Of a DNA stretch of 64,000 bases, positions 6,696 to 59,312 are shown piece after piece (positions within the stretch are counted from its first letter, which is position 1; each line of letters opens with the position of its first letter). The translations under genes and the position numbers were made by a program. The notes under the pieces were generated by a model. The model was not told the origin of the DNA, did no database searches, and worked only from the letters and a program-made list of their open reading frames with translations. Location of the stretch: contig CP066697.1 of the NCBI GenBank assembly GCA_016432625.1, positions 279,363-343,362 on the forward strand, in the 5' to 3' direction. The DNA comes from Candidatus Berkelbacteria bacterium (GTDB lineage Bacteria; Patescibacteriota; UBA1384; 2-12-FULL-50-11).

Positions 6696-6697
6696 CG

Positions 6698-8239: not shown

Positions 8240-8329
8240 CTCTTAATTGTTAGCATACGAAGGGCGCAAAATCTTGTACTTCAGGTCAGACGTTACGTAT
8301 AGTGAGGACAACATAGGAAGGAGGTGAAA

Positions 8330-8743
8330 ATGAATTACGATATCTCTGTAAATTATTGGGCAGTGTTTGTGGCAGCAATCGCATATATGGTGGTTGGTTA
8401 TATATGGTACAGTTTGCCAGTGTTTGGTCGGATGTGGATTGCTGCTATAGGTAAAACCGAACAGGAGATTAAGGAAGGTTATAAACCGGTCACGATGTTG
8501 TGGACCTATATTTTGGCCGCAATCGGGGCTTATGTTTTGGCTCACTTTATTCGGCTTGTGGGCACCACAACGATGACTGAGGCTCTCCAGACTGCTGCTT
8601 GGGCTTGGGTCGGCTTCATTGCTGTGACAATGGCTACGAATGCTTTTTATGAAGGTCGGAGCGCTAGACTCTTCTGGATTAACGCGCTTTACCAACTAGT
8701 TTCAATCCTAATTGCCGCGGCAATTTTATTTGCCTGGCAGTAG
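8330..8743 (+). CDS. small polytopic membrane protein (DUF1761-like)
   Basis: Four predicted hydrophobic helices. The ATG at 8330 is 6 nt downstream of GGAAGGAGG. Confidence 0.5.
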   Translation: MNYDISVNYWAVFVAAIAYMVVGYIWYSLPVFGRMWIAAIGKTEQEIKEGYKPVTMLWTYILAAIGAYVLAHFIRLVGTTTMTEALQTAAWAWVGFIAVTMATNAFYEGRSARLFWINALYQLVSILIAAAILFAWQ

Positions 8744-8749
8744 TCTTCG

Positions 8750-8786
8750 AAGCAAAAACAGCCTAATCTTAAGGCTGTTTTTGCTT
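8750..8786. terminator. bidirectional intrinsic terminator between convergent genes
   Basis: A 15-bp perfect stem (aagcaaaaacagcct / aggctgtttttgctt) with a 6-nt loop and T/A runs on both sides. It overlaps the last codons of the minus-strand gene. Confidence 0.6.
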
Positions 8787-9164
8787 GTCTTCTAAAAGTT
8801 CCTTGATAGCGCCGAGGTAAAAGCTCTTCCAGCCGTCTATAAGGTCTTTCGTCTCTTCTTCGGGGTGGCCAGTCTGTGTTAACTCGACACGAGTCACGTC
8901 GCCCTCTTCAAACAATTCAAAAACAACTGTCGAGGGGCTTGGCCAGTCACCGTACTCCCAGTCTTGAACTAACTTCTTCTTCGGCACTACGATTGTATTT
9001 GTGCCGTGAATCTCTCCTCCCCAAAACTCGAATCTACTACCGACTTTTTCGTCCATTATCGCTGGACCGCCTTCCCATTTGTCGATTTCTGCTGGGTCAG
9101 TCAGAGCTTTCCAAACGGCTGTTATCGGGGCGTTGATTGTTACTGTCAGGTGAATTTCGTCCAT
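8769..9164 (-). CDS. SRPBCC-superfamily protein (AHSA1 / activator of Hsp90 ATPase-like)
   Basis: 131 aa. Overall similarity pattern to AHSA1-domain proteins (TVTINAPITAVWKALTDP...). Confidence 0.5.
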   Translation of the reverse strand: MDEIHLTVTINAPITAVWKALTDPAEIDKWEGGPAIMDEKVGSRFEFWGGEIHGTNTIVVPKKKLVQDWEYGDWPSPSTVVFELFEEGDVTRVELTQTGHPEEETKDLIDGWKSFYLGAIKELLEDKQKQP

Positions 9165-9185
9165 GATTCATTTAATATACCTTTT

Positions 9186-9932
9186 ATGCGTTATGAAAAA
9201 AGCCGCTATACCTACGATCCAAAATCTAAAGGTCCGTTCAAACTGTCACGCACCAAGATTGATAACTTCCTAAAGTGTCCACGTTGCTTTTACCTTGATC
9301 GGCGTTACGGCGTCGGCCAACCGCCAGGATTTCCGTTCACCCTCAATTCGGCGGTGGACTTTTTGCTCAAAAAAGAGTTCGACGCCCATCGCGCGGTAGG
9401 TACTAAGCACCCTTTAATGGAAAATTACGGAGTCGACGCAACACCGTTCGATCACACGAAATTGAGCCAGTGGCGAGAAAACTTTGAGGGCATCCGTTAC
9501 CATCATCAACCGACAAATTTTATAGTCTTCGGCGCTATAGACGATGTTTGGATTAATTCACAAAAAGAACTACATATAGTTGATTACAAAGCGACCTCAA
9601 AAGAAGGGGCAATAAGTTTGGACGCCGAGTGGCAAATTGGCTATAAGCGACAAGCTGAAGTTTATCAATGGTTATTTCGTCGCAACGATTTCAAGGTGTC
9701 TGACACTGCCTACTTTGTTTACGTCAACGGGCGTAAGGATCGCGAAGCGTTCGACGCTAGATTAGAGTTTGATGTCCATTTACTCCCGTATAGTGGTGAT
9801 GATTCGTGGGTAGAGCCGACACTTGTTGATATCAAAAAAACTCTCGATAATGCAGCTATTCCTGAGGCCAATCCAGACTGTGAATACTGCCAATACTCGC
9901 GCGAACGAAACACGGTAGAAACGTCCTCGTAA
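9186..9932 (+). CDS. PD-(D/E)XK nuclease family protein (Cas4/RecB-nuclease-like) with N- and C-terminal CxxC pairs
   Basis: IVDYKATSKE (D..xK) catalytic motif, CPRC near the N-terminus and CEYC near the C-terminus. The ATG at 9186 avoids overlap with the upstream minus-strand gene. Confidence 0.6.
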   Translation: MRYEKSRYTYDPKSKGPFKLSRTKIDNFLKCPRCFYLDRRYGVGQPPGFPFTLNSAVDFLLKKEFDAHRAVGTKHPLMENYGVDATPFDHTKLSQWRENFEGIRYHHQPTNFIVFGAIDDVWINSQKELHIVDYKATSKEGAISLDAEWQIGYKRQAEVYQWLFRRNDFKVSDTAYFVYVNGRKDREAFDARLEFDVHLLPYSGDDSWVEPTLVDIKKTLDNAAIPEANPDCEYCQYSRERNTVETSS

Positions 9933-10121
9933 GAACTGCCATAAAAGTCTCCTTAAGGCCGAGCTATAATTGGCGGGTCATGGTTGACGACGCGAAAAAA
10001 GAAGATCCAGTCGAAGAAACTATTCACCGAGGTTGTGGGCTGCCGGTGTTATTTTTGTCGATGTTTCTATTAGGTTGGCTGATTATCACTCTTACAACCT
10101 AATTTTTTGGGGTAAGCGAAA

Positions 10122-10141
10122 GCCCTGTTACATGAACAGGG
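10122..10141. terminator. perfect 10+10 bp palindrome between convergent genes
   Basis: gccctgttca|tgaacagggc, preceded by a T-run on the + strand. It could equally be a protein-binding site. Confidence 0.4.
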
Positions 10142-10189
10142 CTTCGGGTGACCCACTCGGGGTCAAGTTGGCCTTGCGGCCGCCTCGAC

Positions 10190-12091
10190 TCAGTCGTCGA
10201 GGTTGAGAAGCTTCTTCAGGCCCTCAAGGTCGTTTGCAGCGAGCAACTGCTTGGCTGCAGCGGCTGCCTCTGGATTGGCTCGGAAAGCCTCACCGACGAC
10301 CTTAGTTTGCATGAGCTTCTGCTTTTTGCGCACGAGCGCCGCCATTGCCTCGTCTTGCGCCGCCATTTCCGCTTCGAGCTCGGCCAACGAATCGTCGATG
10401 GTCTTCTCGATCCTAGGAGTGGACGGCTGAACGTTCGGTATGGCCCCGACCGGTTTTTTAGCCGGAGTTTGCTTTCTCACTGCGGAGGCAGCCGGCGCCG
10501 TAGTGGTGCCATTTGTCGCTTTGAGATCTGCAATCACCTTGCTAGCCGAATCGACCTTCTGAAGGTCAAGTTCGCGCTGTCGTGTCGTGCTTGCGTCAAA
10601 CTCGGCTTCGCGTTCCTTCCAGATCGGTTGCCAAGCTTCAACGAGAGAGACTAGCTTCTCGTTGATCGTGTAGCCTACACCGTACGGGTTGCGTCGCTCC
10701 CCGGTGATGTAGCGAGCGTTTGATAACGCTCGGTGGGAGGCCTCAATGACTTTCTCGTTTGTCGTCCAGACATCCAGGGCTTTGCGAAGCGCCGCCCAGT
10801 ATGAGTCCGCTATGAGGAAGTTTGTGCCCTCAGAAGCCGCGATCAGCGTCTCGCCGACCGTGGCAATGCCCTCGTCTGAAGCGACGCGCTCCAGCAAGTT
10901 GTTCAGTCGAGTCTCCGTTAGCTGGTCGCCTTGGGGGCGACTTTTCTTGGCGAGTTCAATTGCTTCTCGCTGCTTGACCACGACGTAGCCTTTGTGTTCG
11001 TACGGCTCTCCGCACTGCTCGAGCACCTTGCGACGCACGAGCTGGCTTAGGCCGCCACCGATCCGACGATCGGCGATTTCATTTGAGTCGATGCCGATTC
11101 TTTGTAAGTACCGACAGAAGACGGCAAGCGTAGCCACGTAGGATAGAGATCCTGACAATGGGTCGGCCTCTGCCATCAGCTCCGCTTCCAGAGCGGCTAG
11201 CTTCTGTTCGTTCTGAAAGAGGTCGCCAAAGGTGCCCTTCTGTTCAGTCTGAGGAGTCGGCGACGCGGCAGGATCCGCTGCGTCATGAGTGTCGAGTTTT
11301 CCCGGTGCGGCCGGTTTCGTGTCTCCCTCGTTGGTAACGGGGGGAGTATCAGCGGGCGGCTGTGGAACGACGACCGTAGTGACGGCCTGCTGGGCAGGCG
11401 GTTCAGGCGTCGTTTGCTGGGTAAAACCAGCTGCAGCTGTTACAACAGCGGCAATAGAGGCGTCTTTCGTCAGCGTGAAGTGGCTAATCGTCTTGCCGTT
11501 CTGAGCGAACGGGAAGAGGTGACTGCCACGCACGAGGCGAAGAAACGCGTCTTGAACGAGCTCTTCACTCGGGTTCTTAACGCCACTGCTGTCTTCGATA
11601 ACGCAGACAACTGCAGTTGCAACCTCTGTGATCGGGATCAAGCCGCGATCCGTCTTCGGGTCGACAACAAGTTGAACGACCAGATTCAGGTGGCTTTCGT
11701 TCCAGAACACGTCGGGGTTGATGCTTGCCTGTCGCTCGCTTATGTTGACGACGACGCTCGACGGCGCCGACTTCTCCTCAGCAGCGCTGACCTTAGCGTG
11801 AACCACGCTGGGGTCGAGTGGGCTGTGAACCTGGGCCCGGAAATGATAACAAGTGTCGTTATCACCCGGTTGGCAAACGCCTTCGATCAAGCGGCCATTA
11901 CGGCGGCTGATCTTGACGCCCTTCCGGTGATGCGTACCCTTGATCTTCTCTCCGATCCAGAGCTCGATTTTGCCTGCGCATTGCAGGCGGTCGCTGAAAC
12001 GTCGTTCGATTGACTCGAAGAAGTCCTTGGGGGCTTCTTTCCGCCGATCGTGACGCTCGAATGTTAACGAACGAGTTTTCGTTTCTATCAC
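10190..12091 (-). CDS. hypothetical protein, 633 aa, with Pro/Thr/Ala-rich central linker and C-terminal coiled-coil; GC-rich
   Basis: Long ORF, about 60% GC versus a backbone of about 47%. No domain recognised. Confidence 0.55.
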   Translation of the reverse strand: MIETKTRSLTFERHDRRKEAPKDFFESIERRFSDRLQCAGKIELWIGEKIKGTHHRKGVKISRRNGRLIEGVCQPGDNDTCYHFRAQVHSPLDPSVVHAKVSAAEEKSAPSSVVVNISERQASINPDVFWNESHLNLVVQLVVDPKTDRGLIPITEVATAVVCVIEDSSGVKNPSEELVQDAFLRLVRGSHLFPFAQNGKTISHFTLTKDASIAAVVTAAAGFTQQTTPEPPAQQAVTTVVVPQPPADTPPVTNEGDTKPAAPGKLDTHDAADPAASPTPQTEQKGTFGDLFQNEQKLAALEAELMAEADPLSGSLSYVATLAVFCRYLQRIGIDSNEIADRRIGGGLSQLVRRKVLEQCGEPYEHKGYVVVKQREAIELAKKSRPQGDQLTETRLNNLLERVASDEGIATVGETLIAASEGTNFLIADSYWAALRKALDVWTTNEKVIEASHRALSNARYITGERRNPYGVGYTINEKLVSLVEAWQPIWKEREAEFDASTTRQRELDLQKVDSASKVIADLKATNGTTTAPAASAVRKQTPAKKPVGAIPNVQPSTPRIEKTIDDSLAELEAEMAAQDEAMAALVRKKQKLMQTKVVGEAFRANPEAAAAAKQLLAANDLEGLKKLLNLDD

Positions 12092-12240
12092 GTCATACCT
12101 CCATTGGTGCTGCGACGATGGACCTGGAAACGATTTCCAGATCCGGTTACTGACGGGCAGTAACCGTAGTGACGAAATTCTACTCTACACTGAGCAAAAA
12201 TCAAGGCTTTTGCAAGTCATTTTGAGCTGCTGATATGGAA

Positions 12241-12264
12241 ACGCCTCCCGGTTAGGGGAGGCGT
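12241..12264 (-). terminator. hairpin downstream of the 363-aa gene
   Basis: acgcctccc-ggtta-gggaggcgt stem-loop, 20 nt after the stop on the minus strand. The following T-run is weak. Confidence 0.35.
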
Positions 12265-12284
12265 CTTCGGGTTGCGTCCAAGTG

Positions 12285-13376
12285 TTACTTCCACAAGGAC
12301 GCGATTTGGGTCTCGTCGAGATGCTGCAAGAGTGAGTTGCTTGACGGGTCAACGTCAGCAGCTTTCGCTGCCTCGATTTTGCCGGCAAGCTCCGCTTGCT
12401 GCTGCTGGCAGGTCTGCACTTCCTGCTCGGATCGCACCACGTTCCTGCGTGCCTGTTCGAGTCGTGACTGCGCTCGGGTGAGCTCAGTTTCGAGTTGTTC
12501 CTCCTCCTTCTTCAAGGACAAGAGCGTTTTTCGCGTTTCGATCAAGGTGCGCAGTGCCTCGACTTTCTCGCGAGCCCCAGGCGCCATGCCCTGAACGCTA
12601 CCCGACAGAAGCTGCCGAATGGCGCTGAGGGCGAGCTTCTTACCACGCCGGTCCAGGAGGTAGTTGTTTTGCTCGTCTTGCATGACGACGTTCGTCTCCA
12701 AGAGAACCCTCTTGGCAACGTAACGGCAACCTTGGCGCATCTTGCCCTCGCCGGTAGCTAGCTCGTGAGTCAACTCGATCACAACATCGAACTCTTCTTC
12801 GGTGCACGAAGCGTTGTCGAGGCACCAGATGTAGTTCAACACTACGTCGTTCTGCAGGAAGTCGCGACGCCAGGCCTGCTCGCAATCGGCGCAGATCTGG
12901 GCCAAGGGTATTCCTGAGTCGGCCTCGGCATCGTTCCATCGCTTCGGCTCCCGGATCCCGAGCCGCTGACAGACCACGTCTACACCGATATTGAGTGGGT
13001 TAATCAGCGTGTAGAAAGCTTGGAGCGAGTCGCCGTGCTGTACCAAGACCTTGATAGAGTCTCGGTTCGGCACGCATTCGATCGGTTCGAAGGCAAAGGT
13101 GACTTCTTTTCTGCCTGCCGCCGCCGAAATCACCTCGATCTCGACGTCGCCAGTGATGCCACGCTTCTGAAGCTCGCTGATGACGTAGTCGATAAACTCT
13201 TGAGGCCTATCGACATTCTTGAGAATTGAAGCGGCTTTGACGGACTTATCGGCCGCCGCACGCGCTTCTTGCTCGGTGAGGCCTAGGGCAGTGCCCACGA
13301 CCGCACTGAGGTGCCGCAGATTTTTAATTTTCAATTCCGATAATCCTCCACGAAATGCCCAGGCATTGTAAAGCAA
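12285..13376 (-). CDS. hypothetical protein, 363 aa, C-terminal coiled-coil; GC-rich
   Basis: Long ORF co-directional with and upstream of the 633-aa gene. No domain recognised. Confidence 0.55.
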   Translation of the reverse strand: MLYNAWAFRGGLSELKIKNLRHLSAVVGTALGLTEQEARAAADKSVKAASILKNVDRPQEFIDYVISELQKRGITGDVEIEVISAAAGRKEVTFAFEPIECVPNRDSIKVLVQHGDSLQAFYTLINPLNIGVDVVCQRLGIREPKRWNDAEADSGIPLAQICADCEQAWRRDFLQNDVVLNYIWCLDNASCTEEEFDVVIELTHELATGEGKMRQGCRYVAKRVLLETNVVMQDEQNNYLLDRRGKKLALSAIRQLLSGSVQGMAPGAREKVEALRTLIETRKTLLSLKKEEEQLETELTRAQSRLEQARRNVVRSEQEVQTCQQQQAELAGKIEAAKAADVDPSSNSLLQHLDETQIASLWK

Positions 13377-13410: not shown

Positions 13411-15042
13411 TTATTGAGTGCTTAAAGATTTCTTCGACTGTCTTTTACGCTGAAAACCGATAGCGAAGCGGTGGACTTCGTCGCGGATTCGACTTAGCAG
13501 TAGCAGCCCTTTGTGGCCACGAGTAACGGCTATTGGCAATTTGCGGCCGGGCAAAAAGACTCGATCAGGTTTTTTTGCTAGCGCTATTATTGTCTTAGGT
13601 TGAATAGGGGCGTCTTTTATCCCTTCAAGGGCGGATTTCAGTTGCTCAACGCCACCGTCGATCACCATTATGTCCGGCGCAGTCCGGGTTGTATCACTGA
13701 AGCGGCGATGCATTACCTCCCGGATCATCGCAAAGTCATTCTGGCCCTCAACGGTTTTTATTTTATAGCGACGGTACTCGTTTTTATCTGGTTTGCCGTT
13801 AACGTAACAGACAGTTGCCCCAACCGGTTCCGAACTACCCAGATTAGAAATATCAACAGCTTCAATACGAGTTGGTAGAGCCGGGAGCTTAAGTAGTTCC
13901 TGAACAGCGACAACGCTTTTAAATGATTGGTCGGTCCTGAGGAGTCTCGTTTCGAGTTTGGCAGCGGCGTTCCTTGCGGCTAGTTCAACCATTTGCCGTT
14001 TCTCGCCGCGCTCGGCAGTCCGCAGTTCGACCTTTTTGCCGGCGACGGTACCGAGAAACTTGGCAATTACATCCTGGTCGCTGATTTCTTCGCTTAACGC
14101 TACAAGACCAGGAATTTCAGAAAAATTTTGGTAAGCACTAATTATAAAACTCCTCACTACTTCATTCTGATTCTCACTGCCGGTTAATTGAAAATAAAAG
14201 GTTTTCTGTCCAGTTACTCGACCTTCTCTTACCATCAGGACGCTGACAGCAGCACTCATTTGGGTTTGAGCGGCGGCAATCACGTCGTAATCATCCTGAA
14301 TTGTAGAGATAACCTTTTGCCGGCTGAGTATTTGCTCAACTGATTGCAGTCGGTCGCGTAACTTGGCTGCTAATTCGTACTGCTCATTCTTCGCAGCCAG
14401 TCGCATCCGATCATCAAGGTCATCAACGAGATGCTTCCTTTTGCCTTGCAAAAATTCAATGGCGCGATCAACTCGCTCCTGATAGGACTCCTCGTCAACC
14501 TCGCCGCTCAGTGGGCAGGTGAACTCGCCGAGCTGACAACTCAAACACGCTCGGTCACGGTTGGGTCGAAGAGGTGTGCTACTGATGTGGATCCCGTAGA
14601 TTTTACGAAGAAACTCCAAAGTGTTTATGGCGTCTCGGCCAGAAAGATATGGTCCAAAGTATATGGCCTTGTCTTTGTTTCGCTTTCGAGTAACTGTAAA
14701 ACGCGGGATCGCCTCGTTTAAGACGACTTTAAGAAACGGGTAAGCCTTGTCGTCGGTAAGCTTAATATTGAAACGGGGCAAGTGTTGCTTGATTAGTGTC
14801 GCTTCGAGCATTAACGCCTCAACCTCGTTGGTTACAACGATAGTTTCCACGTTATGGACAAAACCCATCATCACTTGAATCCAGGGGCGGTCGTTATTTT
14901 TACCAGAGAAATAACTCCCGACCCGGCTTTTAAGGTTTAAAGCCTTACCGACATAAAGAATCTGTCCTGAGACGTCCTTAAATAGGTAAACACCTGGTTT
15001 ATCTGGGAGTCCCTGCCACAAATTCTTCTGGGCACTAATCAT
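13411..15042 (-). CDS. uvrC: excinuclease ABC subunit C (short form lacking C-terminal helix-hairpin-helix domain)
   Basis: N-terminal GIY-YIG (GVYLFKDVSGQILYVGKALNLKSRVGSYF), UvrBC-interaction region and RDEVHRFAIGFQRKR near the C-terminus. It ends about 60 aa earlier than canonical UvrC. Confidence 0.9.
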   Translation of the reverse strand: MISAQKNLWQGLPDKPGVYLFKDVSGQILYVGKALNLKSRVGSYFSGKNNDRPWIQVMMGFVHNVETIVVTNEVEALMLEATLIKQHLPRFNIKLTDDKAYPFLKVVLNEAIPRFTVTRKRNKDKAIYFGPYLSGRDAINTLEFLRKIYGIHISSTPLRPNRDRACLSCQLGEFTCPLSGEVDEESYQERVDRAIEFLQGKRKHLVDDLDDRMRLAAKNEQYELAAKLRDRLQSVEQILSRQKVISTIQDDYDVIAAAQTQMSAAVSVLMVREGRVTGQKTFYFQLTGSENQNEVVRSFIISAYQNFSEIPGLVALSEEISDQDVIAKFLGTVAGKKVELRTAERGEKRQMVELAARNAAAKLETRLLRTDQSFKSVVAVQELLKLPALPTRIEAVDISNLGSSEPVGATVCYVNGKPDKNEYRRYKIKTVEGQNDFAMIREVMHRRFSDTTRTAPDIMVIDGGVEQLKSALEGIKDAPIQPKTIIALAKKPDRVFLPGRKLPIAVTRGHKGLLLLSRIRDEVHRFAIGFQRKRQSKKSLSTQ

Positions 15043-15186
15043 GATCGGGGAAATGGTATCACAGATAAGACTTCAAGTCAGGGGACGAATATGGTTCAAA
15101 AAATTCGCGCCAGGCCGTTGGCGCTTCCTTGCGCTACCCCAATGGCGATCATCGCTACTATATATACCTGTAATAGTATATTCTTC

Positions 15187-15267
15187 GTAGGGGCAAGGGG
15201 CTTCATTGCGAAGTCAGCCCCTTACCCCTACAACCCCATCCCCAACACGCTCCCTACGGGGTTAAGG
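15187..15267 (+). repeat. R repeat copy A: GC-rich hairpin (gtaggggcaaggggc / ttcattgcgaagtca loop / gccccttacccctac) plus downstream box ccccaacacgctccc
   Basis: A near-identical copy in inverted orientation lies at 26504-26581. Related copies lie at 59343-59412, 60070-60220 and 60995-61042. Confidence 0.8.
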
Positions 15268-15331
15268 TGAAAACTTTCGGTTCGTTCCGGAAGGATCGCG
15301 GTAACAGCCCCTCAGTTTCGACTATTAACTA

Positions 15332-15385
15332 ATCGAAAAACAAGCAAATCTAACCCTCAAGCAGGTTATTTACTTGTTTTTCTCC
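15332..15385 (+). repeat. S stem-loop copy A (atcgaaaa-[stem]-aatctaaccctcaagcaggttatt-[stem']-ttttctcc)
   Basis: Direct copy at 26450-26503 with a different but again self-complementary stem. Third copy (reverse complement) at 59425-59475. Possible structured RNA or att-like site. Confidence 0.6.
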
Positions 15386-15543
15386 AGACGCCTGTTCGAA
15401 TGTGCCGGGGGTTGGTCGTTAGGATAGGGGGCGGGCTTCTAAACTCTGAGCCCCCTGTCCTAACATGTAGCCTCGCTTCGTGCGACGAAAAACAATAAAC
15501 AATTAGCATATGCTTCGTAACATAAAAAACATCCTAAACTCAT

Positions 15544-15571
15544 TGACAAATAGATGAGTTTAGAGTATCAT
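15544..15571 (+). promoter_or_regulatory. sigma70-like promoter reading into the GC-rich island
   Basis: TTGACA, a 16-nt spacer, then TATCAT, in an AT-rich patch at the island's left edge. Confidence 0.5.
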
Positions 15572-15584
15572 CTTGCACAACAAG

Positions 15585-15785
15585 TTAGGAAAGAATATTT
15601 TCTACTTGAGCACGTCCAACTAAATAAAGATCGAATGCGTCGGTAGCGCCTTCATCAGTGATTATTGATGACTTTGCGCGCGAATCGGCAAGGTCTTTTT
15701 TGTTGCCCGTGAGGCGGTAGGCCCGTCCTCGGCTTGAGCGATTATGCCTAACGAGGTAGTTGCAACAATAGCCACTCTTTAACAA
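15585..15785 (-). CDS. possible small basic protein (66 aa, TTG start) antisense to the promoter-proximal leader
   Basis: GAGGA lies 5 nt upstream of the TTG. There is no other support. Confidence 0.2.
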   Translation of the reverse strand: MLKSGYCCNYLVRHNRSSRGRAYRLTGNKKDLADSRAKSSIITDEGATDAFDLYLVGRAQVENILS

Positions 15786-16160
15786 CTTGTTTCCTCATTG
15801 CCCACGAGCCTAAGTTCGTGAGTAGCGAGGAGCGGTTGAAGCAATTCGACCGCTGGTAATCCAGTCATGATAAAAAACCACAAAGATCCGCGGGCCGAGA
15901 AGGCTCGCTCTCGTCGAAGTCCGGACTATTCACGCGACCCTGCTGGCTGTTTTGCCAGACATGCCCACAAGGCAGATCGCCGACTTCGCCATATGGGTGT
16001 GAAGGGAAAGCGTCCGAAAATCTACTGGGTGACGACGCTCGGTTGGCGAGCAAGCATTTAGCAGTACAGCGATACGGGCGAGACCAGATCTTCGAATTTG
16101 GTCTCGCCCTCTCATGACACGTTCGATGACTCGAACGTGGCTAGGAGGATAGTAAAAACC

Positions 16161-16511
16161 ATGATTGAATTCGGTCGACTACCGTTTAGCGGAGCCGAGG
16201 ATTTAAAGAGACATCGGGAACGCCTACTTCAGTACATGACTGGACAACACGCCGAGGCCTGCCTGGACAGACTACTTGATGCTGACGCAAAGATCGTCGC
16301 TATCAGCTACACACACGGTCGGGAGTTCGGTAAGGGCGAGGCAATTTACTTCGTCATGTCGGCAGACGAGTCGTCGGTGATGGTCATGAACACAGACGAG
16401 AACAAGCTGACGGGAACCCGACGCGGGAGCTTGCGGGGTGCAGGTGAGAATCTTCTCACGAGATACTTGCTCGACGACAACCTCAGTTCACTTCGCGTGG
16501 CTGCACAGTGA
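16161..16511 (+). CDS. island hypothetical protein (117 aa, cytoplasmic)
   Basis: The ATG is 7 nt after AGGAGGA. Two strong hairpins lie in the leader (16076-16108, 16113-16134). Confidence 0.5.
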   Translation: MIEFGRLPFSGAEDLKRHRERLLQYMTGQHAEACLDRLLDADAKIVAISYTHGREFGKGEAIYFVMSADESSVMVMNTDENKLTGTRRGSLRGAGENLLTRYLLDDNLSSLRVAAQ

Positions 16512-16599
16512 ATACGACACGGTGAGGCGGCAACTTCGGTTGCTCGCCTCACCCTCAATTAAGTTCACAACCACATGTTGCGAACTTTGAGAGAACAAA

Positions 16600-16854
16600 A
16601 TGAAGACTTTACTCGGCCTTTTCTTCGTCACCGTTTGCTGTTTCTTTCTCGGTTCTGGCGGCTTTGTGGCCGTCGAACTCGTCAAGATGATCCAAGCAAA
16701 CCAGATTACATCAACGCAAAGTGCGATCATAACGCTCGTGGTCGTTACCTCACTCGCGTTCGCGGTCGGCTCGTACCGGGCGAGCAAGTACGCGTTCAAA
16801 GGTCAGTTCCGACGGTTCTGGAAGCTGATCAACGGCGGCTGGCTTCCGGTCTGA
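16600..16854 (+). CDS. island small membrane protein (84 aa, 2 TM)
   Basis: Hydrophobic ORF, co-directional and tightly packed with its neighbours. Confidence 0.45.
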   Translation: MKTLLGLFFVTVCCFFLGSGGFVAVELVKMIQANQITSTQSAIITLVVVTSLAFAVGSYRASKYAFKGQFRRFWKLINGGWLPV

Positions 16855-16962
16855 CAACACTTCGAAAACAAGGGCGAAACGGAGCTTCAGCTCCGTATCG
16901 CCCGACCCGCAAAGCTCGTAATAGCGTATGAGTTGTGCGGGTTCTTGGAGGGCCCTCAGTCA

Positions 16963-17301
16963 ATGAAGAAACTCGTCACTCGAGCCTTTACGCTCGTTGA
17001 GATTATGATCATAGTTGTGATCGCAATCGTCCTCTTGCTCGCGATTGCGCTTCCCACCTTTCGCCACGCCAGCGAGACCAGCCGTAAGACCAGATGCATC
17101 GGTGGGCTCGGGCTGATCAGCGCGGCCAAAGAGCAGTGGGTGAAGGACCACAAGAATGGCGGTGGTACGGTTGTGCTTCTGGCTGACCTGTCGCCGCTAT
17201 ACATCAGGGATTTCCCTTCATGTCCCTCGGGTGGCGAGATCACGATCGGCAAGATTGGGGAGGCCCCGACCTGCTCGATTCCTGGTCATGCCTTGCCGTA
17301 A
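16963..17301 (+). CDS. prepilin-type N-terminal domain protein (type IV pilin/pseudopilin-like)
   Basis: MKKLVTRAFTLVEIMIIVVIAIVLL matches the class III signal and hydrophobic segment of type IV pilins (A in place of the usual G before FTLxE). Confidence 0.55.
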   Translation: MKKLVTRAFTLVEIMIIVVIAIVLLLAIALPTFRHASETSRKTRCIGGLGLISAAKEQWVKDHKNGGGTVVLLADLSPLYIRDFPSCPSGGEITIGKIGEAPTCSIPGHALP

Positions 17302-17452
17302 CCAACCCACCCAGTTCGCTCCGGAAGGCGAGACGTAGCTTTGGCTCCGTCTCGCCTCTTCCTTTCAGCCCACACTTTGTTAATTTGAACCTTTCAGTGG
17401 GCTGAAAGGAGGAAACTCCCCGTGATCCCGCGGTTAAGGGTGGAGGAACAAA

Positions 17453-17818
17453 ATGCTAACTTTGCGTAATCAGAACAATGCTCGTACCCTTACCGAATTG
17501 CTAGGATCCCTCACTGGATCGAAGGCGCAGGCGGTGTGCGAGAAGATTCGTCATATGAACGGCATCGTTGAAGCGATCAACGACGCGCCGCGTGGTAATG
17601 CGGGTGTCGAAATCGTTTACTTCGCCGAGCCAGTTCACAACGCACCTGGTGGTGGGCTGTCCCACTATGCCGTCTACTCGGTTTCCACCAACGATATCTG
17701 TGTCTCGCACTGCTATCGAGGCTTGTACAGCTTCTCGTTACAGCGCGAGGAACTCCTGCAAAGGGTCCTCCTCGAAGACGACCGAGAGGCATGGGAAGCC
17801 CTGGCTGGCAAGTGCTAG
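17453..17818 (+). CDS. island hypothetical protein (121 aa)
   Basis: GGTGGAGGA RBS 6 nt upstream of the ATG. Confidence 0.5.
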   Translation: MLTLRNQNNARTLTELLGSLTGSKAQAVCEKIRHMNGIVEAINDAPRGNAGVEIVYFAEPVHNAPGGGLSHYAVYSVSTNDICVSHCYRGLYSFSLQREELLQRVLLEDDREAWEALAGKC

Positions 17819-17937
17819 CTCGTTATCAACTTTGTCGCGAGTCCGACCCTTCGGGGTTCGGGCTCGCGGCTCCGACCTTTACTTCGTGATATTCCCATCC
17901 GTCTTTGACTTCCCAGTCGAGACGGGTGGTGAACAGC

Positions 17938-18195
17938 ATGAAAGTCGTTATATTAGTAATCGTCGCTTGCTTTGTGCTTGGCTGCCAAACTGTGCCGAAA
18001 GAAGATGTTGCCAAAGCTAAAGCTGACTTTTTGCAGCGAACAAGAGGTGTAGTCAACGAAGAGTCCGTTTCTTGTCACGCCTGGGACAAGCTGAACCCCT
18101 ACGTGAGATGTAGTGGTGTAACTGCCCAAGGCAAGGTGATAAGTGCGGTATACCAATGGAATCAAGAGTGGTGCGTGACATTCTACTCCGACTAA
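17938..18195 (+). CDS. island lipoprotein (85 aa)
   Basis: Signal peptide with lipobox (VLGC). Four further Cys. Confidence 0.5.
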   Translation: MKVVILVIVACFVLGCQTVPKEDVAKAKADFLQRTRGVVNEESVSCHAWDKLNPYVRCSGVTAQGKVISAVYQWNQEWCVTFYSD

Positions 18196-18310
18196 ATGGG
18201 GTGGATAAGTCATGAGGCTACCCGATACATCAACCTTTGGCGTCCCGAGGGGACGCTCACTCGTAAGCGACAAGAAAACGTCGCCGACAACCGTTCCTAC
18301 CGGAGGTGGG

Positions 18311-18574
18311 ATGAAGCAAGTACTGTCTGCCGTATGGTCGTGGCTCCTAGCCTTGGGCGCTTGGTGCTTCGAAAACCCTCGCCGTGGTCTAATCACGATC
18401 GCTGCGATTCTGATCCTCGTCTACCCGCCGATTCTCGGTAAGGTAGTTGGTCGGATATTTGAGGCGCTCGCTCCGTTCATTGGCTTATTGCTGATGTTCG
18501 GGATGATCTACCTCATTATCAAGCCACTCCTGCCGAAGCGGCCCAAACCCCAGCAGCGGAGGTCGGACCGATGA
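18311..18574 (+). CDS. island small membrane protein (87 aa, 2 TM)
   Basis: GGAGGTGGG RBS directly upstream of the ATG at 18311. Confidence 0.5.
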   Translation: MKQVLSAVWSWLLALGAWCFENPRRGLITIAAILILVYPPILGKVVGRIFEALAPFIGLLLMFGMIYLIIKPLLPKRPKPQQRRSDR

Positions 18575-18690
18575 CCGCCTGCTGCGACTCTCGGGCGAAA
18601 CGGATCTCGTATCCGTCTTCGCCCTTCAATGAAGCTGCTGAACGCGTGACGTTCGACAGTTTCTAGAAATCTCACGGAGGAAACACACAC

Positions 18691-19044
18691 TTGGGACAAT
18701 CACCTACCATAGGACAGAGTCTGGAATTTCCGGACTTCTTCTACTTCTTGCGGTTCGGTCAAGAAAGCTCGCATTTTGCCGTCACGACCCACCTGGGCGA
18801 GTCGGCGATGTTGTGTTTTCGCTCGATCCGCGACATGGACGTTTACGCTAAGCCCTTCGAGGACACTCCGGGCATGTCGCGTTACGATTCCGACGCTCAG
18901 TCGATTGACTCGGCGCGGGATTTTCTTCGGGAACACTTCCCGAGCTTCCGTGCACTTGTCCTATTCGAGCCGGGCTATGTGCCCGGGCGAGATGAGGCGC
19001 GGCTGTCGGTGCATATCCCGCCGCCGCAACCCGTGATCGGGTGA
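18691..19044 (+). CDS. island hypothetical protein (117 aa, TTG start)
   Basis: GGAGGA lies 10 nt upstream of the TTG. Confidence 0.4.
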   Translation: MGQSPTIGQSLEFPDFFYFLRFGQESSHFAVTTHLGESAMLCFRSIRDMDVYAKPFEDTPGMSRYDSDAQSIDSARDFLREHFPSFRALVLFEPGYVPGRDEARLSVHIPPPQPVIG

Positions 19045-19132
19045 CCACTTACGCCTAACTTGGCGAGGTGGTCGCCCACCTTTCCGTCACCAGGAATTCG
19101 CTATGGCGATATTCGTGGTGGGGGATAAGCGT

Positions 19133-19285
19133 ATGAAACAGTATTCTTCTGAGTCCGATCAGCGCCGCCAGGAACGTTATGAGTTTTGGCGACTGCTTGG
19201 ACTTGGGGCTTTGTGCCTCGTCATCACTACCGCCGTTGTGGTTATCGCAACCCAATGGTGGAACAACCCGATCACCGTCAGGTGA
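19133..19285 (+). CDS. island small C-tail-anchored membrane protein (50 aa)
   Basis: GGGGGA RBS. Single C-terminal hydrophobic helix. Confidence 0.35.
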   Translation: MKQYSSESDQRRQERYEFWRLLGLGALCLVITTAVVVIATQWWNNPITVR

Positions 19286-19301
19286 AGGAGCGCAATGCGC
19301 A

Positions 19302-19610
19302 ATGGAAGAGCTTTTGGCTAGTTTTGACTTTCCGGAAGAGTTCTACATCGTCAGGCTTCTAGATTCCGAGGGCTACGGCCGTACCAATTACTGGGGACTA
19401 CCAGCCATTCTTTGTTTTCAGTTGAAAGATGATGCAGAGAACTTCGCCCGAAGGATGAACCGGGGCAACGAGATCTTGGTGGTCTCGCTCGATTTTGCCA
19501 GGGATCTGGCACTGTCAAGTCACGTGTACCGCTACCTCGTTCTCTACCAGCCTGAGACGCCGGAAGAAGAGTATCCGGCGATCTATGTTCCCGTTTCCAA
19601 AACAGGGTGA
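19302..19610 (+). CDS. island hypothetical protein (102 aa)
   Basis: GAAGGAG RBS upstream. Acidic, soluble. Confidence 0.45.
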   Translation: MEELLASFDFPEEFYIVRLLDSEGYGRTNYWGLPAILCFQLKDDAENFARRMNRGNEILVVSLDFARDLALSSHVYRYLVLYQPETPEEEYPAIYVPVSKTG

Positions 19611-19734
19611 CCAATGGCAAACCAGCCAAACGTCACCCACCTTTCCTCCAGCATGAAGCAATTCGTGCTTGGGGATGAGGGAAACCTCGAGACCTGTAAG
19701 TCCTGACCGCAAGGCAGGCTGGGTAAGGAAAGAA

Positions 19735-20151
19735 ATGGCAGACGAATGGGATGACATCCGCGGCGACATTCGCCAAGGACACGGTATCTTCTTTCGGTAC
19801 TTCTGGCTGTGGCTGATCATCTTGATCGGCTTGAGCTGGGGCGGGACCCTCGCCTACAAGGCTTGGATTCGTCCGACCGAAATCAACTTGGAGACGAAGG
19901 CGATTCGCCAGTCGATCCAGTATCAGGACACGGGCATCACCGCGATGCTCGAGAACGTCAAGGGTTACAAACGGCTCGAAACGGATATCCTGAAGTACGA
20001 AAGCGACCCGGCCAACGCCAAGCTCGTCGAGGGCATGCGCTCACAGCAGCGCTCGCTCTTGGACGACATCGAGACCACTGCCGATCGTATCGGCCGCGAC
20101 CGCGTGCCGGATTCGGTGCGCAGCTTCCTGGCAGCTCACGAGGGAGGGTAA
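19735..20151 (+). CDS. island N-terminally anchored membrane protein (138 aa)
   Basis: AAGGAAAG RBS. One TM helix, then a soluble domain. Confidence 0.5.
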   Translation: MADEWDDIRGDIRQGHGIFFRYFWLWLIILIGLSWGGTLAYKAWIRPTEINLETKAIRQSIQYQDTGITAMLENVKGYKRLETDILKYESDPANAKLVEGMRSQQRSLLDDIETTADRIGRDRVPDSVRSFLAAHEGG

Positions 20152-20158
20152 CGAGACA

Positions 20159-20746
20159 ATGAAAAACCTTTGCACGATCCTTTTGGTCACGGGCATTTTC
20201 TTCGTCTCGGGCTGTGGCTCGGATAACAAGGCAACCGCTGACACCCGTGAGCAGGTGGCTGTGAATAGGCAGCAGGAGATCTACGTGAAGAACCAGCCGA
20301 TCCCGGTCTTCGATTGGAGCCGGACGCGTGATCTTCTGATCCAATTCTACGTTGCCCAAAACGGGGCAGCGGCGACCTGGAGCTACATAACGCCCCAAAT
20401 GGGCGCGACTGTGCTGTTCGAAACACCGAGCCAGGGCTACCCGATCCCGATGGATACTCAGCTCACCAACCCGCTCCAAGCGGTTTGGGAAAGCAATAGC
20501 TATGGGTTGGGTGGACTTACACTCGCACAAGCGGAGCCTAACGGGGTCTTCACCTCGCCGAATACCGACGCGACAATCGTCATGGCGGTAAACGGCGACG
20601 GCACGCTCTCGCCGATCTACACCGAGCTCAAGGTGACCACGTTCCCATTCCCTGTCCGCTGGGATAAGGAGAAGGGGCAGTGGGTTCGGATCGAGGGCAA
20701 GGAGCCTTCTATCAAACTCATCCCCAAAGCGGGGAAGGGTGGATAG
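20159..20746 (+). CDS. island lipoprotein (195 aa)
   Basis: Signal peptide with lipobox (VSGC). GAGGGAGGG RBS. Confidence 0.55.
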   Translation: MKNLCTILLVTGIFFVSGCGSDNKATADTREQVAVNRQQEIYVKNQPIPVFDWSRTRDLLIQFYVAQNGAAATWSYITPQMGATVLFETPSQGYPIPMDTQLTNPLQAVWESNSYGLGGLTLAQAEPNGVFTSPNTDATIVMAVNGDGTLSPIYTELKVTTFPFPVRWDKEKGQWVRIEGKEPSIKLIPKAGKGG

Positions 20747-20846
20747 CGGTTCTTGCCTCTCACCCCTTCGGGTCAGTCCGGCGCAAGCCGGGTCTGGCCC
20801 ACCTTTCCCCGTTCACAATCAATTGTGGGCGGAGAGGAGGTTTGAT

Positions 20847-21122
20847 GTGTACTTCTTACTGTTCGCCGGGCTTTTCGTTGCCTTCTTCTCAGGCTTAGCA
20901 CTGCTGGTCACCCTTATCGTGTACAACTGGGGCATGTTTGGTGCGCGCAAGCGGTTTGGCCGGGAAGAGTTTTGGTCGACACTCGCCAGCGGAAACGATG
21001 ATTTCGACGATGTACGCGAAAATGCGATATGCATACCCGCAATCGCCGTTATCGCTGTCCTAGACCTCATACCCTGGCTCACGAGCAAGCTATTTCGCCG
21101 TCCCAACCAAAAGACGGCGTGA
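20847..21122 (+). CDS. island 2-TM small protein, paralog 1 (GTG start)
   Basis: GGAGG lies 6 nt upstream of the GTG. Two hydrophobic helices. Confidence 0.45.
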   Translation: MYFLLFAGLFVAFFSGLALLVTLIVYNWGMFGARKRFGREEFWSTLASGNDDFDDVRENAICIPAIAVIAVLDLIPWLTSKLFRRPNQKTA

Positions 21123-21228
21123 GCTTCTCATTCGGCTGAAGCGTGTGCATACGCAAACGTTTCAGCCCCCAACTGGATTCTTGACCAGCAGGTCGAGGGT
21201 TCTGAGGGAAACCTTAAGGAGAGAAGAA

Positions 21229-21525
21229 ATGGAAACCCTAAGCAACCTGCTAGGAGTTTTGTTGTTTTGGACTGTCATATCCTTCGGCTTTGCGTCCTTC
21301 GCCCGAGCATCCATGCCGGAGCGTGGGGACAACATGTTCGAGTGGTTTCGACGTATGTGCTTCGGACTTGAGCCAAATGACGGACCGATTTGGCTGGTAG
21401 TTGTCGCTCTGACGCTGCCAACCACTATACTGATCGGGATTTGGGAGTGGGTAGTTTATCCACCTGTTTCCCGAGCAAGTCGCAAGTTTCTTGAACGCAT
21501 CCAAGCCACAGGCAATGCGTCGTGA
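21229..21525 (+). CDS. island 2-TM small protein, paralog 2
   Basis: AAGGAGAG RBS. Preceded by a hairpin plus a conserved 37-bp ttgacc-containing motif. Confidence 0.5.
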   Translation: METLSNLLGVLLFWTVISFGFASFARASMPERGDNMFEWFRRMCFGLEPNDGPIWLVVVALTLPTTILIGIWEWVVYPPVSRASRKFLERIQATGNAS

Positions 21526-21598
21526 CCCGGCTGACGGTACTCGTACCGTCAGCCATCGCTCCTTGACCGTCAGGTAACTGATGATCGGGGATACGAAC

Positions 21599-21913
21599 AT
21601 GTATAACAACATCGACTCACTAACTTGGTGGTGGACTGTAATACTGCCTAGTTGGGTAGTGGCGAATCTGGTGGTGTGGTTCCTCTTCTGTTTGCTCCAC
21701 GCCACAGCTGGTGGACCGGCTGACGGACTCATCCTGTTCTTGAAAAAGCCCTTTGAGAGCCTAGACGAGAACACAGACCGACTTCCTGAACGACTACTCA
21801 TCGTAGGATTCGTTCTATTTTTCCTACCGCTCTTCGTTGCCGTTCAGCTTTGTGTTCTGATTGCACGGCTTGCACGCTTTCTTTGGATTGTCGCTACCAT
21901 AAAACGTGCATAA
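21599..21913 (+). CDS. island 2-TM small protein, paralog 3
   Basis: Same cassette layout as paralog 2. Preceded by a perfect 12-bp-stem hairpin and a ttgacc motif. Confidence 0.45.
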   Translation: MYNNIDSLTWWWTVILPSWVVANLVVWFLFCLLHATAGGPADGLILFLKKPFESLDENTDRLPERLLIVGFVLFFLPLFVAVQLCVLIARLARFLWIVATIKRA

Positions 21914-21999
21914 ACGCTCGCTTTGACTGACGGACACTCTCCGTCAGTCCCCGACTGAATTCTTGACCAGATGGTCGAGGGTTCTGAGGGAGGAACTAA

Positions 22000-22197
22000 T
22001 TGAAAGTGTTTGAATCGTTCATTTCTTGGCTTCTTCAAGCTTGGCTGACCGCCGCGTTTGAGCTCCACACCTTCAAGTGCGAGCAGTGTTTGAACGTTGA
22101 AATGGGGTTAACCGCTCCCGACAGCTTATGCCAGCGAGGCAAAGAGCTCAAAGCCGCGATCGGCGCGGAAGAAACCAACTGTGGGCAACCAAACTAG
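22000..22197 (+). CDS. island small Cys-rich protein (65 aa, CxxC...C...C; TTG start)
   Basis: GGGAGG upstream. Possible zinc-ribbon-like fold. Confidence 0.35.
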   Translation: MKVFESFISWLLQAWLTAAFELHTFKCEQCLNVEMGLTAPDSLCQRGKELKAAIGAEETNCGQPN

Positions 22198-22365
22198 GAT
22201 TGCCCACCCAACTGAGTTTTCAAATCTTTGAAGACTTTGAGGGTTTGTCTGGCCGGATCCGCTCCGGACGCAACGGTATCAGATGAAGTAATTCATTTTG
22301 AAATTTGCCGTTGCACTACCGCCGGAGCGGTTTTGGCTGGACAACGGTTCAGCAGGAGTGAACGT

Positions 22366-22662
22366 ATGTTACAAGTCTGGGTGAATGCTCAACTTGTCCG
22401 CCGAGGCGCTGTAGAAAGCGATTCGGAGGGCATCGCCTACTGCCGTTTCCGCTCTAAAGACGGAGACGTGGTGGCCACTTTCAACGAACGCAAGATTCAG
22501 GAAGAGGGCGGCAACGTCCTCATACCAGGAGCTTGCGACGACCTGATCGGCGAAAATGGCTTCATCGCCGTTAAGCCTGACTACGAGCCGTTTCTTTGGG
22601 GGGTTCACGGCCGCCCGAGAGAAACCGTATTGGTTCCGACAGCTGAGGTGATCTCAAGGTGA
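22366..22662 (+). CDS. island hypothetical protein (98 aa)
   Basis: AGGAGTG RBS 6 nt before the ATG at 22366. Confidence 0.45.
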   Translation: MLQVWVNAQLVRRGAVESDSEGIAYCRFRSKDGDVVATFNERKIQEEGGNVLIPGACDDLIGENGFIAVKPDYEPFLWGVHGRPRETVLVPTAEVISR

Positions 22663-23321: not shown

Positions 23322-23418
23322 TCACGACCACAACCTGGAGGCGCACGAATGAGAGTAATCTCACCCGTGCGCCCACCAACTGCCCGACAAGCTACCGCTT
23401 GAAAGGCTGAGGTTAAAC

Positions 23419-23874
23419 GTGAATAGACCCACATTAGTGCCACTCGTACTCGGGTTTATTTTCGGGTACCTACTTTTCAACACTGGTTTCTTCGGAGGTC
23501 CGTGTGTATTGCCACTGCTCTTGTTGATCGCACTCTACTCGCGAGGTATAGCCAGGATGCGTGAAGCTCATCGCTGGGCTGACATGCAGGCTATTCCCGC
23601 GGGCGACTGGTTGGTGCAGCTAAACATCTTCACCAACATTGGTTGCCAGAAGCATGAGCATCAAGTCCGTGGTGAGTTCAGGAGGCTCATACCCTTCATC
23701 GGCATTCGTTCGCCCGAAGAGGTAGAGCGGATTCGTCAGATGGTGGCGGATGCTTCGGAGGGTGGCTACGACTGGGTCACACTCTACAACCCTCCGGGAT
23801 TACCAAAACAGTTCGAACATCAGGCAACCTCGACGATTACTATCAGGTATTCGCCGTTGGAGGCCCCATCATAA
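23419..23874 (+). CDS. island membrane protein (151 aa)
   Basis: Two N-terminal hydrophobic helices. Confidence 0.45.
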   Translation: MNRPTLVPLVLGFIFGYLLFNTGFFGGPCVLPLLLLIALYSRGIARMREAHRWADMQAIPAGDWLVQLNIFTNIGCQKHEHQVRGEFRRLIPFIGIRSPEEVERIRQMVADASEGGYDWVTLYNPPGLPKQFEHQATSTITIRYSPLEAPS

Positions 23875-59291: not shown

Positions 59292-59312
59292 AATATTTTG
59301 AATCAAAAGCAG

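Follow-up and report, generated by a model that had tools for sequence, protein, structure and literature searches.

The 64,000-nucleotide window analysed here (positions 279,363 to 343,362 of contig CP066697.1, assembly GCA_016432625.1, Candidatus Berkelbacteria bacterium) carries uvrC (13411-15042, - strand), uvrA (26578-29484, - strand), uvrB (30858-32843) and, further along, fusA and tuf, which are separated by a spacer of 1907 nt. Beside these genes lie copies of a short repeat, R, in which a GC-rich hairpin is followed by a conserved box. The original prediction, made from the letters alone, described at least five dispersed copies that always mark the boundaries of atypical DNA. The copies are a true family, a real, structure-constrained and unnamed non-coding module. 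The first, c1, lies 145 nt upstream of the start of uvrC, its left neighbour, and points away from that gene. The second, c2, adjoins uvrA in sense orientation, and the uvrA stop TAG (26580-26578) falls within the GTAG that opens its hairpin. Copies c3, c4 and c5 reside in the fusA-tuf spacer, where c3 begins about 4 nt after the fusA terminator and c5 lies about 60 nt upstream of the tuf promoter.

A covariance model was built from four R copies and run over the whole window with filters off. All five places named beforehand hold a copy, and a sixth, R2 (15391-15465, - strand), had been overlooked. The highest scores belong to c2 (110 bits, 26501-26582, - strand) and c1 (109 bits, 15186-15267, + strand), followed by c3 (63.5 bits, 59342-59425, + strand), the diverged c5 (37.7 bits, E 4e-7, 60958-61043, - strand) and the diverged R2 (30 bits, E 2e-5). 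The disrupted c4 appears as two half-hits (60159-60215 and 60059-60119, - strand), and no other position in the 64 kb gave a scoring match. Exact matches to the loop TTCATTGCGAAGTCA are found at 15202 (+), 26552 (-) and 60190 (-), with a one-mismatch version at 59359 (+); for the box CCCCGACACGCTC the exact places are 26516 (-), 59398 (+) and 60074 (-), and 15240 (+) differs by a single mismatch. At up to two mismatches the box occurs eight times against 1.45 expected, a count reached in none of 100 shuffles. The 9-mer ACGCTCGCT, said to recur near 21917, is present at 21914, but this is one of two extra hits against 0.69 expected, the model is silent there, and the recurrence is best treated as chance. 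The same cannot be said of the copies themselves. Their intergenic places near gene ends, and the other GC-rich hairpins of the window, might suggest unrelated ordinary terminators that look alike by accident; this explanation is refuted by model E-values of 1e-23 to 4e-7, an identical 15-nt loop, a shared box, covariation and orthologues in other genomes.

The whole module spans about 135 nt and runs from the hairpin through a C-rich spacer, the box and a 3-bp mini-hairpin to a terminator-shaped hairpin, T. The R hairpin has 15-16 G/C-rich base pairs and an invariant apical sequence, UUCAUUGCGAAGUCA, and its folding energies lie well below those of shuffled sequences (z -4.5 to -6.8). The spacer is single-stranded in the module and leads to the box CCCCGACACGCUC; the mini-hairpin has the form CNC-TAC-GNG and usually precedes GGTTAAGG. 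In c1 (15187-15267, + strand) the hairpin occupies 15187-15231 (15 bp, loop TTCATTGCGAAGTCA, z -5.4), and the C-rich spacer is followed by the box at 15240-15252, the mini-hairpin at 15252-15260 and then GGTTAAGG. The corresponding parts of c2 (26501-26581, - strand) are a hairpin at 26537-26581, a box at 26516-26528 and a mini-hairpin. In c3 (59343-59425, + strand) a 16-bp hairpin with a GCAGGAGG-type stem and one change in the loop (59343-59389, z -6.5) precedes the box at 59398-59410. The stems of c1 and c2 read GTAGGGG and not GGTAGGGG, as had been written. Nor is the box found at a variable distance of 0-100 nt: its spacing from the hairpin is fixed at 8 nt in c1, c2 and c3, and c4 alone deviates because about 85 nt were inserted and the right arm was truncated. 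What is left of c4 (60021-60220, - strand) is the left arm, the loop and a 9-nt right-arm remnant (60181-60220), the box (60074-60086) and a T-like hairpin with A/T-runs (60021-60057). Diverged c5 (60915-61043, - strand) consists of a hairpin at 60995-61042 (z -6.8), a box-like tract and mini-hairpin CCC-GCA-GGG down to 60958, and a terminator unrelated to T (60934-60915). The hairpin of R2, at 15418-15464, carries the loop TCAGAGTTTAGAAGCCC and is followed by box-like CCCCCGGCACAT.

Hairpin T has an invariant apex, ATAACCTGC-N3-4-GGGTTAGATT, in the units of c1, c2 and c3. Flanked by an A-run and a T-run, it folds at -14.7 to -16.2 kcal/mol (z -2.1 to -4.7) and has the stable hairpin and subsequent U-run of an intrinsic (Rho-independent) terminator; a simple terminator scanner passes over it, its loops being longer than 8 nt. 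It directly follows the box on the same strand in all six standard units, namely c2, c3, the unit of a relative's locus (L012) and the R2 units of the window and of two further relatives' loci (L015 and L019), and the T motif was seen solely beside R-type hairpins. The degenerate copies c4 and c5 have other terminator-like hairpins in its place. The T of c2 (26445-26495, - strand, z -3.7) comes directly after the box, and that of c3 (59424-59476, + strand) is followed 40 nt later by a promoter-like site at 59516. Upstream of uvrC, T (15328-15388, - strand, z -4.7) has a bidirectional-terminator shape, with both A-run and T-run and the apex ATAACCTGC-N4-GGGTTAGATT on the - strand. It stands about 95 nt from the c1 box and in the standard position after R2; this long form amounts to a standard R2-box-T unit to which c1 adds another hairpin and box that point towards the shared T. 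A promoter within R or the box was also considered, since c1-type copies contain TTGCGA-17-TACAAC, and was set aside: the sequence is not retained in c3-type copies and the scanner finds none.

With a hairpin at the 5' end and a terminator in every case, each unit could be the gene of a small trans-acting RNA, or a small RNA derived from a 3' untranslated region, with a C-rich seed directed at G-rich ribosome-binding sites. Small RNAs with C-rich seeds have such an architecture, the c3 type contains CACCUCC, and an independent gene could outlast the inversion found in L015 (see below). Yet no consistent promoter precedes the hairpins, c3 begins 4 nt after another terminator, no convincing targets were found within the window, and it is the loop that is most conserved, whereas the C-rich tract differs among subtypes. 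Such a gene is very improbable.

Eight R hairpins were aligned by hand, with N as gap placeholder, for pairing counts. In the main hairpin 93.4% of cells pair, compared with 45-58% when partner columns are slid, and double (compensatory) changes affect 6 of 16 pairs; the observed values were reached in 0 of 500 shuffles, which bears out the earlier statement that the stems differ by paired changes. The c3 subtype even has a paired 1-bp insertion in its stem. In the mini-hairpin the middle pair is C-G, A-U, G-C or U-A among copies, with a covariation score of 0.40 that only two of 500 shuffles reached. As a 3-bp stem cannot matter in duplex DNA, this covariation points to a single-stranded form, and the pattern as a whole indicates that selection on single-stranded structure of R is real. 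Three further ideas were considered and set aside. A loop-to-box pseudoknot (GCG..GUC with GAC.CGC) offers no usable covariation, loop and box being invariant in R and the diverged copies mixed. Pairing of the R loop with TGACTTTGCG in the conserved leader downstream of the module is not kept in L019. Four G-tracts on the complementary strand of c1-type copies, which could suggest a G-quadruplex or mirror repeat, are interrupted in the c3-type.

The copies form three inverted pairs, spanning 280 nt (c1/R2), about 880 nt (c3/c4) and 11.4 kb (c1/c2), in which the hairpins lie at the outer ends and the boxes face inward. As an inverted repeat, c1/c2 extends over 81 nt at 93% complementarity with its parts 11,233 nt apart, and c3/c4 over 46 nt at 91%. 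A further c3/c4 inverted repeat of 30 nt at 90% takes in the last bases of fusA. Because the 3' end of fusA and its flank (59286-59315, + strand) are duplicated in inverted form at 60246-60275, the c3/c4 repeat reaches past R into fusA-flanking DNA.

The sequences of elongation factor G and UvrC place the window in Candidatus Berkelbacteria, within the Patescibacteria, and comparison with related, uncultured Berkelbacteria-like genomes separates an old copy from younger ones. R lies upstream of uvrC in five lineages: the window, L015, L012/L016-18, L019 and L002, the last four having UvrC proteins 73%, 71%, 69% and 66% identical to that of the window. The 15-nt loop is identical across the window, L015, L019, L012 and L002, and the R unit is 83-93% identical, compared with about 66-68% for uvrC DNA (measured for L012 and L002). 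Counterparts of R2 occur at 6839-6920 of L015 and 1190-1274 of L019. Given orthologous copies in five lineages, c1 is, on this distribution, an ancestral element upstream of uvrC and not an insertion scar. In L020 (UvrC 67%) and L021 (66%) both flanks are kept and R is reduced to decayed remnants. L020 has the same layout as the window, with uvrA, about 7 kb of small open reading frames (ORFs) on the opposite strand and uvrC, without R, and the uvrA-uvrC "island" is therefore an old variable region of the clade.

For the other copies, the idea that R marks insertions fares better. The c2-type T-box-R unit is absent after uvrA in L020, where uvrA stops 12 codons earlier, at a simple terminator. 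Between fusA and tuf, spacers without R measure 103 nt in L006 and 156 nt in L005 (elongation factor G, EF-G, 93% identical), compared with 1907 nt in the window, and 951 nt in L007 (EF-G 86%), with a different ORF inside. Both c2 and c3-c5 look like additions specific to the lineage of the window. The claim that copies always sit at the boundaries of atypical DNA nevertheless fails, with c1 orthologous in five lineages and the island occurring in L020 without R; R is not a marker of foreign DNA. As a dispersed family, R is seen within the window alone, as six copies at two loci. Across 92.8 kb of relatives' loci, plus 43.3 kb from L020 and L021, the model found R at no more than one locus per relative. 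One strict loop pattern, applied to 185,579 species-representative genomes, returned a single true R copy plus chance hits, and a metagenome scan with the strict loop pattern likewise gave one true hit plus chance hits.

L015 carries the module (window 15187-15446) in reverse, at its usual place and between colinear flanks, and between the long form and the short form it is T alone that has turned round. The R-T-R2 module is bracketed by the palindrome AGCATATGCT and degenerate versions of it, at 15505-15514 and about 15173-15182 of the window; palindromes of the same type occur at 6616-6625 and 6929-6938 of L015 and at 9567-9580 and 9703-9716 of L021. The breakpoints of the L015 inversion fall at these palindromes, which may represent an operator ahead of uvrC, a site of crossover or the remains of an old target duplication. 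If they, or the inverted R copies, were crossover sites for a recombinase, R would be a DNA inversion switch that flips the 280-nt module or the 11-kb region, as the L015 inversion, the flipped T and the 93% inverted repeats c1/c2 around 11.2 kb could suggest. The differences, however, are seen between species only, the genes checked showed no invertase, the island is oriented alike in the window and L020, and ordinary recombination between inverted repeats would account for a rare fixed inversion. A dedicated switch is a long shot.

Searches for known families agree with the earlier remark that R was not recognised as a named one. Rfam (release 15) has no match in the whole window at gathering thresholds, gives only spurious microRNA and small nucleolar RNA hits (E>=1) over 15000-16300 and returns nothing at E<=1 over the Helicobacter loci discussed below. 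ARAGORN detects no tRNA or tmRNA gene in the window, which leaves no tRNA-derived element, and no relevant description of R was found in the literature. Eight ORFs of the island, those between fusA and tuf and three flanking ones yielded nothing informative in Pfam, PHROGs or NCBIfam. No REP-associated tyrosine transposase (RAYT, a Y1 HUH transposase) is recorded for the called genes or scanned ORFs of the window, REP being the repetitive extragenic palindrome, and no clear direct target-site duplication flanks c2 or c3-c4.

Several known structures were compared and rejected. The defining features of integron attC sites, retrons, group II introns and IS200/IS605 ends are absent. For attC in particular, R stems lack the R''/R' cores (RYYYAAC ... 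GTTRRRY), the hairpins occur at ends only and not after each ORF, and there is no integrase; R2 of the window alone shows an attC-like GTTAGGA...TCCTAAC, which is not kept in L015 or L019. Mimicry of the 16S rRNA 3' end was considered because GTAGGGGAA, GAAGTC, AACCTGC..GGTTAGAT and CACCTCC are present, but they are not in 16S order and CACCTCC is confined to the c3 subtype; the resemblance is probably coincidence.

Outside the clade, a BLAST search of 50,697 phage records with the module found one prophage, of Helicobacter sp. 13S00477-4 (82% over 66 nt, E 4e-6), and the covariance model scores this look-alike at 44 bits (E 4e-9). Common to it and R are the G-rich and C-rich arms with the same C.A mismatch, the core ATTGCGAAGTC of the loop, a C-rich spacer and, as box, AACACGC. 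Two more copies, one degenerate and one truncated, bring the intergenic spots to three, and all three copies are in sense orientation inside phage late operons, starting 29-42 nt after a stop codon; they lack a clear U-run terminator downstream. No further look-alike was found in plasmids, 5,426 complete E. coli genomes or 2.9 million IMG/VR contigs, and the hits of four patterns in IMG/VR outside the one Helicobacter genome have no hairpin and were put down to chance. The hairpin-box(-T) might be an undescribed nucleic-acid element recognised by a protein or RNA and shared by chromosomes of Patescibacteria (candidate phyla radiation, CPR) and Helicobacter phages. It would then be an RNA of a new type that controls termination or antitermination, or the end by which a new kind of small mobile element is recognised, with the AUUGCGAAGUC loop and the ACACGC box as contact surface. 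This proposal is doubtful at present.

The phage setting also bears on elongation control of the nut or put type. Here a dedicated protein would bind the loop, as N binds boxB, and a boxA-like box (CGCUC-N-CUA) would serve NusB/NusE and govern whether transcription stops at T. The order of hairpin, box and terminator is that of rrn-type boxB-boxA, the Helicobacter copies lie in late operons, and the box matches 7 of 9 positions of the boxA consensus CGCUCUUUA, a comparison made by eye against the published consensus (YGCUCUUUA). A much better boxA-like string, CACTCTTTAACAAC, lies in the conserved leader downstream of the module, from which it follows that the lineage probably uses boxA-type antitermination. 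This control by R is nonetheless improbable: the resemblance of the box to boxA is partial, no N-like gene was identified, read-through at c2 and c3 would enter antisense or unrelated DNA, the Helicobacter copies lack clear U-run terminators, and the inversion in L015 is tolerated.

The main rival is a non-autonomous mobile DNA element, such as a miniature inverted-repeat transposable element (MITE), a REPIN (REP doublet forming a hairpin) or a foldback-like element. Hairpin and box would be its ends, recognised as DNA by an enzyme encoded elsewhere that would move or copy the element, and the inverted ends would sometimes enclose cargo. The three inverted pairs with the hairpin outside and the box inside, the lineage-specific insertions c2 and c3-c5, the truncated and decayed copies, the flipping of the L015 module between two AGCATATGCT-like palindromes and the GTAG with which the c1-type stem opens, as in REPs, all fit this explanation. 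So does a close look-alike that occurs in Helicobacter prophages, the only one found among the phages, plasmids and IMG/VR contigs. On the other side, family matches and annotations point to no transposase or recombinase in those genes of the window that were checked (many ORFs being unscanned), and the copy number is low, with one locus per relative. An orthologous copy kept over deep divergence with covarying stems speaks for long-term constraint and not for recent spread. The loops of the inverted ends differ on any one strand, a poor fit to single-strand-specific HUH enzymes, and covariation of the arms is unexpected if terminal inverted repeats (TIRs) are bound as double strands. The c3/c4 repeat extends into fusA-flanking DNA as a segmental duplication would, and the covarying mini-hairpin and the obligatory terminator are left unexplained. 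As the whole account, a mobile element is unlikely, though it has to be taken seriously.

In kind, R is closest to the intergenic palindromic elements of the ERIC/BIME/Correia type, among them the enterobacterial repetitive intergenic consensus (ERIC, also called the intergenic repeat unit, IRU). ERIC elements are imperfect palindromes of about 127 bp in Enterobacteriaceae and Vibrionaceae, for which no transposase is known. Like R, they have low to moderate copy number and a patchy taxonomic distribution, lie between genes, near gene ends and in either orientation, in regions that are transcribed (for R, predicted to be), and include conserved orthologous copies with compensatory changes that suggest selection on RNA structure. 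R differs in its CPR host, in showing no sequence similarity (R unit BLAST against 5,426 complete E. coli genomes) and in its build, where a hairpin whose large loop is invariant is joined by a separate box and a terminator hairpin of its own, in place of one long palindrome.

REPs, bacterial interspersed mosaic elements (BIMEs) and REPINs resemble R as GC-rich extragenic hairpins at gene 3' ends, sometimes over stop codons. BIMEs are mosaics with other conserved motifs, and REPs form inverted doublets and open with GTAG, as c1-type copies do. In REPs the GTAG lies outside a stem that is conserved for recognition, whereas in R it is base-paired inside the stem in the c1-type and replaced by GCAG in the c3-type, and the stem covaries around an invariant loop. 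R also seems to be a low-copy repeat, with six copies at two loci of the 64-kb window and a single locus per relative over 92.8 kb, and no RAYT gene was seen within those 64 kb. The Correia elements of Neisseria (CREE, Correia repeat enclosed elements, or NEMIS, Neisseria miniature insertion sequences) and BOX and RUP (repeat unit of pneumococcus) of Streptococcus are likewise small, intergenic and without ORFs, built with inverted ends or from modules; transcribed together with their neighbours, they affect promoters, termination or the processing of mRNA. As MITEs they are present in many copies, and their TIRs and target duplications (TA for Correia) are well defined, where R offers no more than candidates for these two features; they share no sequence similarity with R. 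Lambda nut sites and rrn antiterminator leaders have in common with R a sequence-specific loop on a covarying stem, a nearby single-stranded box starting CGCUC, a terminator downstream and an occurrence in phage operons. R departs from them in its partial boxA match, in a 15-nt loop that is not a GNRA-like pentaloop and in its positions after uvrA and fusA and not at operon starts; no N-like protein is known for it.

The preferred reading, to which we give a probability of about 45%, sees in the R-T module a mosaic element of the ERIC/BIME kind, working as single-stranded RNA where transcripts end and now and then copied as DNA. A single-strand function is suggested by the fixed order of hairpin, box, mini-hairpin and terminator, by covariation in the 3-bp stem, by the sense position after ORFs and by an invariant loop and box on variable stems. 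The module would be selected as a single strand, most likely as RNA read from hairpin through box to T and co-transcribed with the upstream gene. It could form or insulate transcript 3' ends, transcription stopping at T and the long hairpin shielding the 3' end, and would present loop and box to a sequence-specific partner. Only rarely would a new copy be created, through DNA-level copying into the 3' ends of genes; the arrangement of copies as inverted repeats would favour inversions and inverted duplications. An RNA role and a DNA-copied repeat are compatible, by analogy with ERIC or BIME. Beyond anatomy, conservation and covariation, this account is interpretation of the sequence.

Several observations weigh against this reading. 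Stem mismatches in the R orientation comprise about nine A.C and about four G.U, and for 8 of 11 hairpins folding is slightly better on the complement; inference of the strand from mismatch types or folding energies was dropped as not significant, and either strand could be the one that folds, with the complement slightly favoured. No convincing promoter was found before c1, R2, c4 or c5, and both the transcript of R and the partner of its loop are predicted only. R is dispensable in L020 and L021. Other traits are those of mobile DNA: a sporadic distribution in one CPR clade and one Helicobacter strain, truncated or decayed copies (c4, c5, the Helicobacter copies Hel2 and Hel3, and the L020 and L021 remnants), and the combination of insertion polymorphism and inverted-pair geometry.

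The tiny genomes of CPR bacteria have, as far as we know, almost no characterised non-coding elements, and the module offers a definite candidate for a new structured motif of RNA or DNA there, more conserved than neighbouring uvrC, clearly covarying and absent from Rfam. Its inverted copies coincide with an in-place inversion, inverted duplications and lineage-specific DNA in an otherwise rigid fusA-tuf junction, and the module may help explain how streamlined genomes are rearranged. The near-identical core in Helicobacter prophages would imply a shared molecular partner or the transfer of a very small element between phyla. The comparison also corrects a misreading, the repeats not being simple flags of foreign islands.

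Several features of the surrounding DNA deserve description. The genes uvrC, uvrA and uvrB are clustered at 13411-32843, and between uvrC and uvrA lies a block of small, family-less and often membrane-like ORFs, among them one with a prepilin-type N-terminus and one acyltransferase, with a G+C content of 52-59% compared with 46-50% nearby. The layout recurs in L020 with different ORFs, which marks a hypervariable region of the clade. Downstream of a sigma-70-like promoter, TTGACA-17-TATCAT (15543-15571), comes a non-coding leader of about 290 nt that holds the rrn/lambda boxA-like CACTCTTTAACAAC (about 15770-15795), and then a conserved 64-aa basic ORF (15867-16061). The leader is conserved in L012, L015, L019, L020 and L021, with indels that are not multiples of three, and 15543-16061 resembles a leader for antitermination, serving the small ORFs that run for 11 kb on the same strand. 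A 34-aa paralogue of the small basic protein (MKKLYRFRSHATHKQHRRLLHM...) lies at the uvrA end of the variable region (26278-26382) and in the same place in L020 (about 2790-2890). Inside the variable region, a 48-nt direct repeat (90%) with TTGACC at 21162-21209 and 21944-21991 may be a duplicated internal promoter or leader.

On the uvrC side of c1, a conserved hairpin with a T-run (GCGCCAACGGCCTGGCGC GAATTTTTT) at 15107-15124 (- strand), about 65 nt upstream of the uvrC start, lies in a leader 90% identical to that of L015 and may be an attenuator or short leader transcript. Two large ORFs of 633 and 363 aa at 10190-13376 (- strand, G+C 56-58%) have no Pfam or PHROGs hit, and the 363-aa ORF has only a far sub-threshold NCBIfam hit; their homologues come after uvrC in L015, L020 and L021.

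Within the fusA-tuf insertion, a promoter at 59516 (TTGACT-17-TATTAT) would drive a predicted non-coding transcript of about 180 nt ending at a bidirectional terminator (59703-59730), on which a 67-aa hydrophobic ORF (59938-59735, GGAGG ribosome-binding site) converges; the layout at 59516-59938 resembles a type I toxin-antitoxin pair. The 159-aa ORF between c4 and c5 (60372-60851) has no Pfam, PHROGs or NCBIfam match, and the ORF in the L007 spacer is a different one, of 149 aa, on the other strand. In the Helicobacter prophage BK070152.1 (L050, 1300-4000), tandem units of about 640 nt each contain a strong promoter-like site and a 75-aa ORF, 91-99% identical between units. Finally, the closest relative (L005, GCA_022843855.1) carries a complete type I restriction-modification system at 4825-12528, right after rpsJ; this insertion, made up of HsdM, HsdS, HsdR and genes of the NYN and AAA types, interrupts the conserved str/S10 gene order at a further point in the clade.

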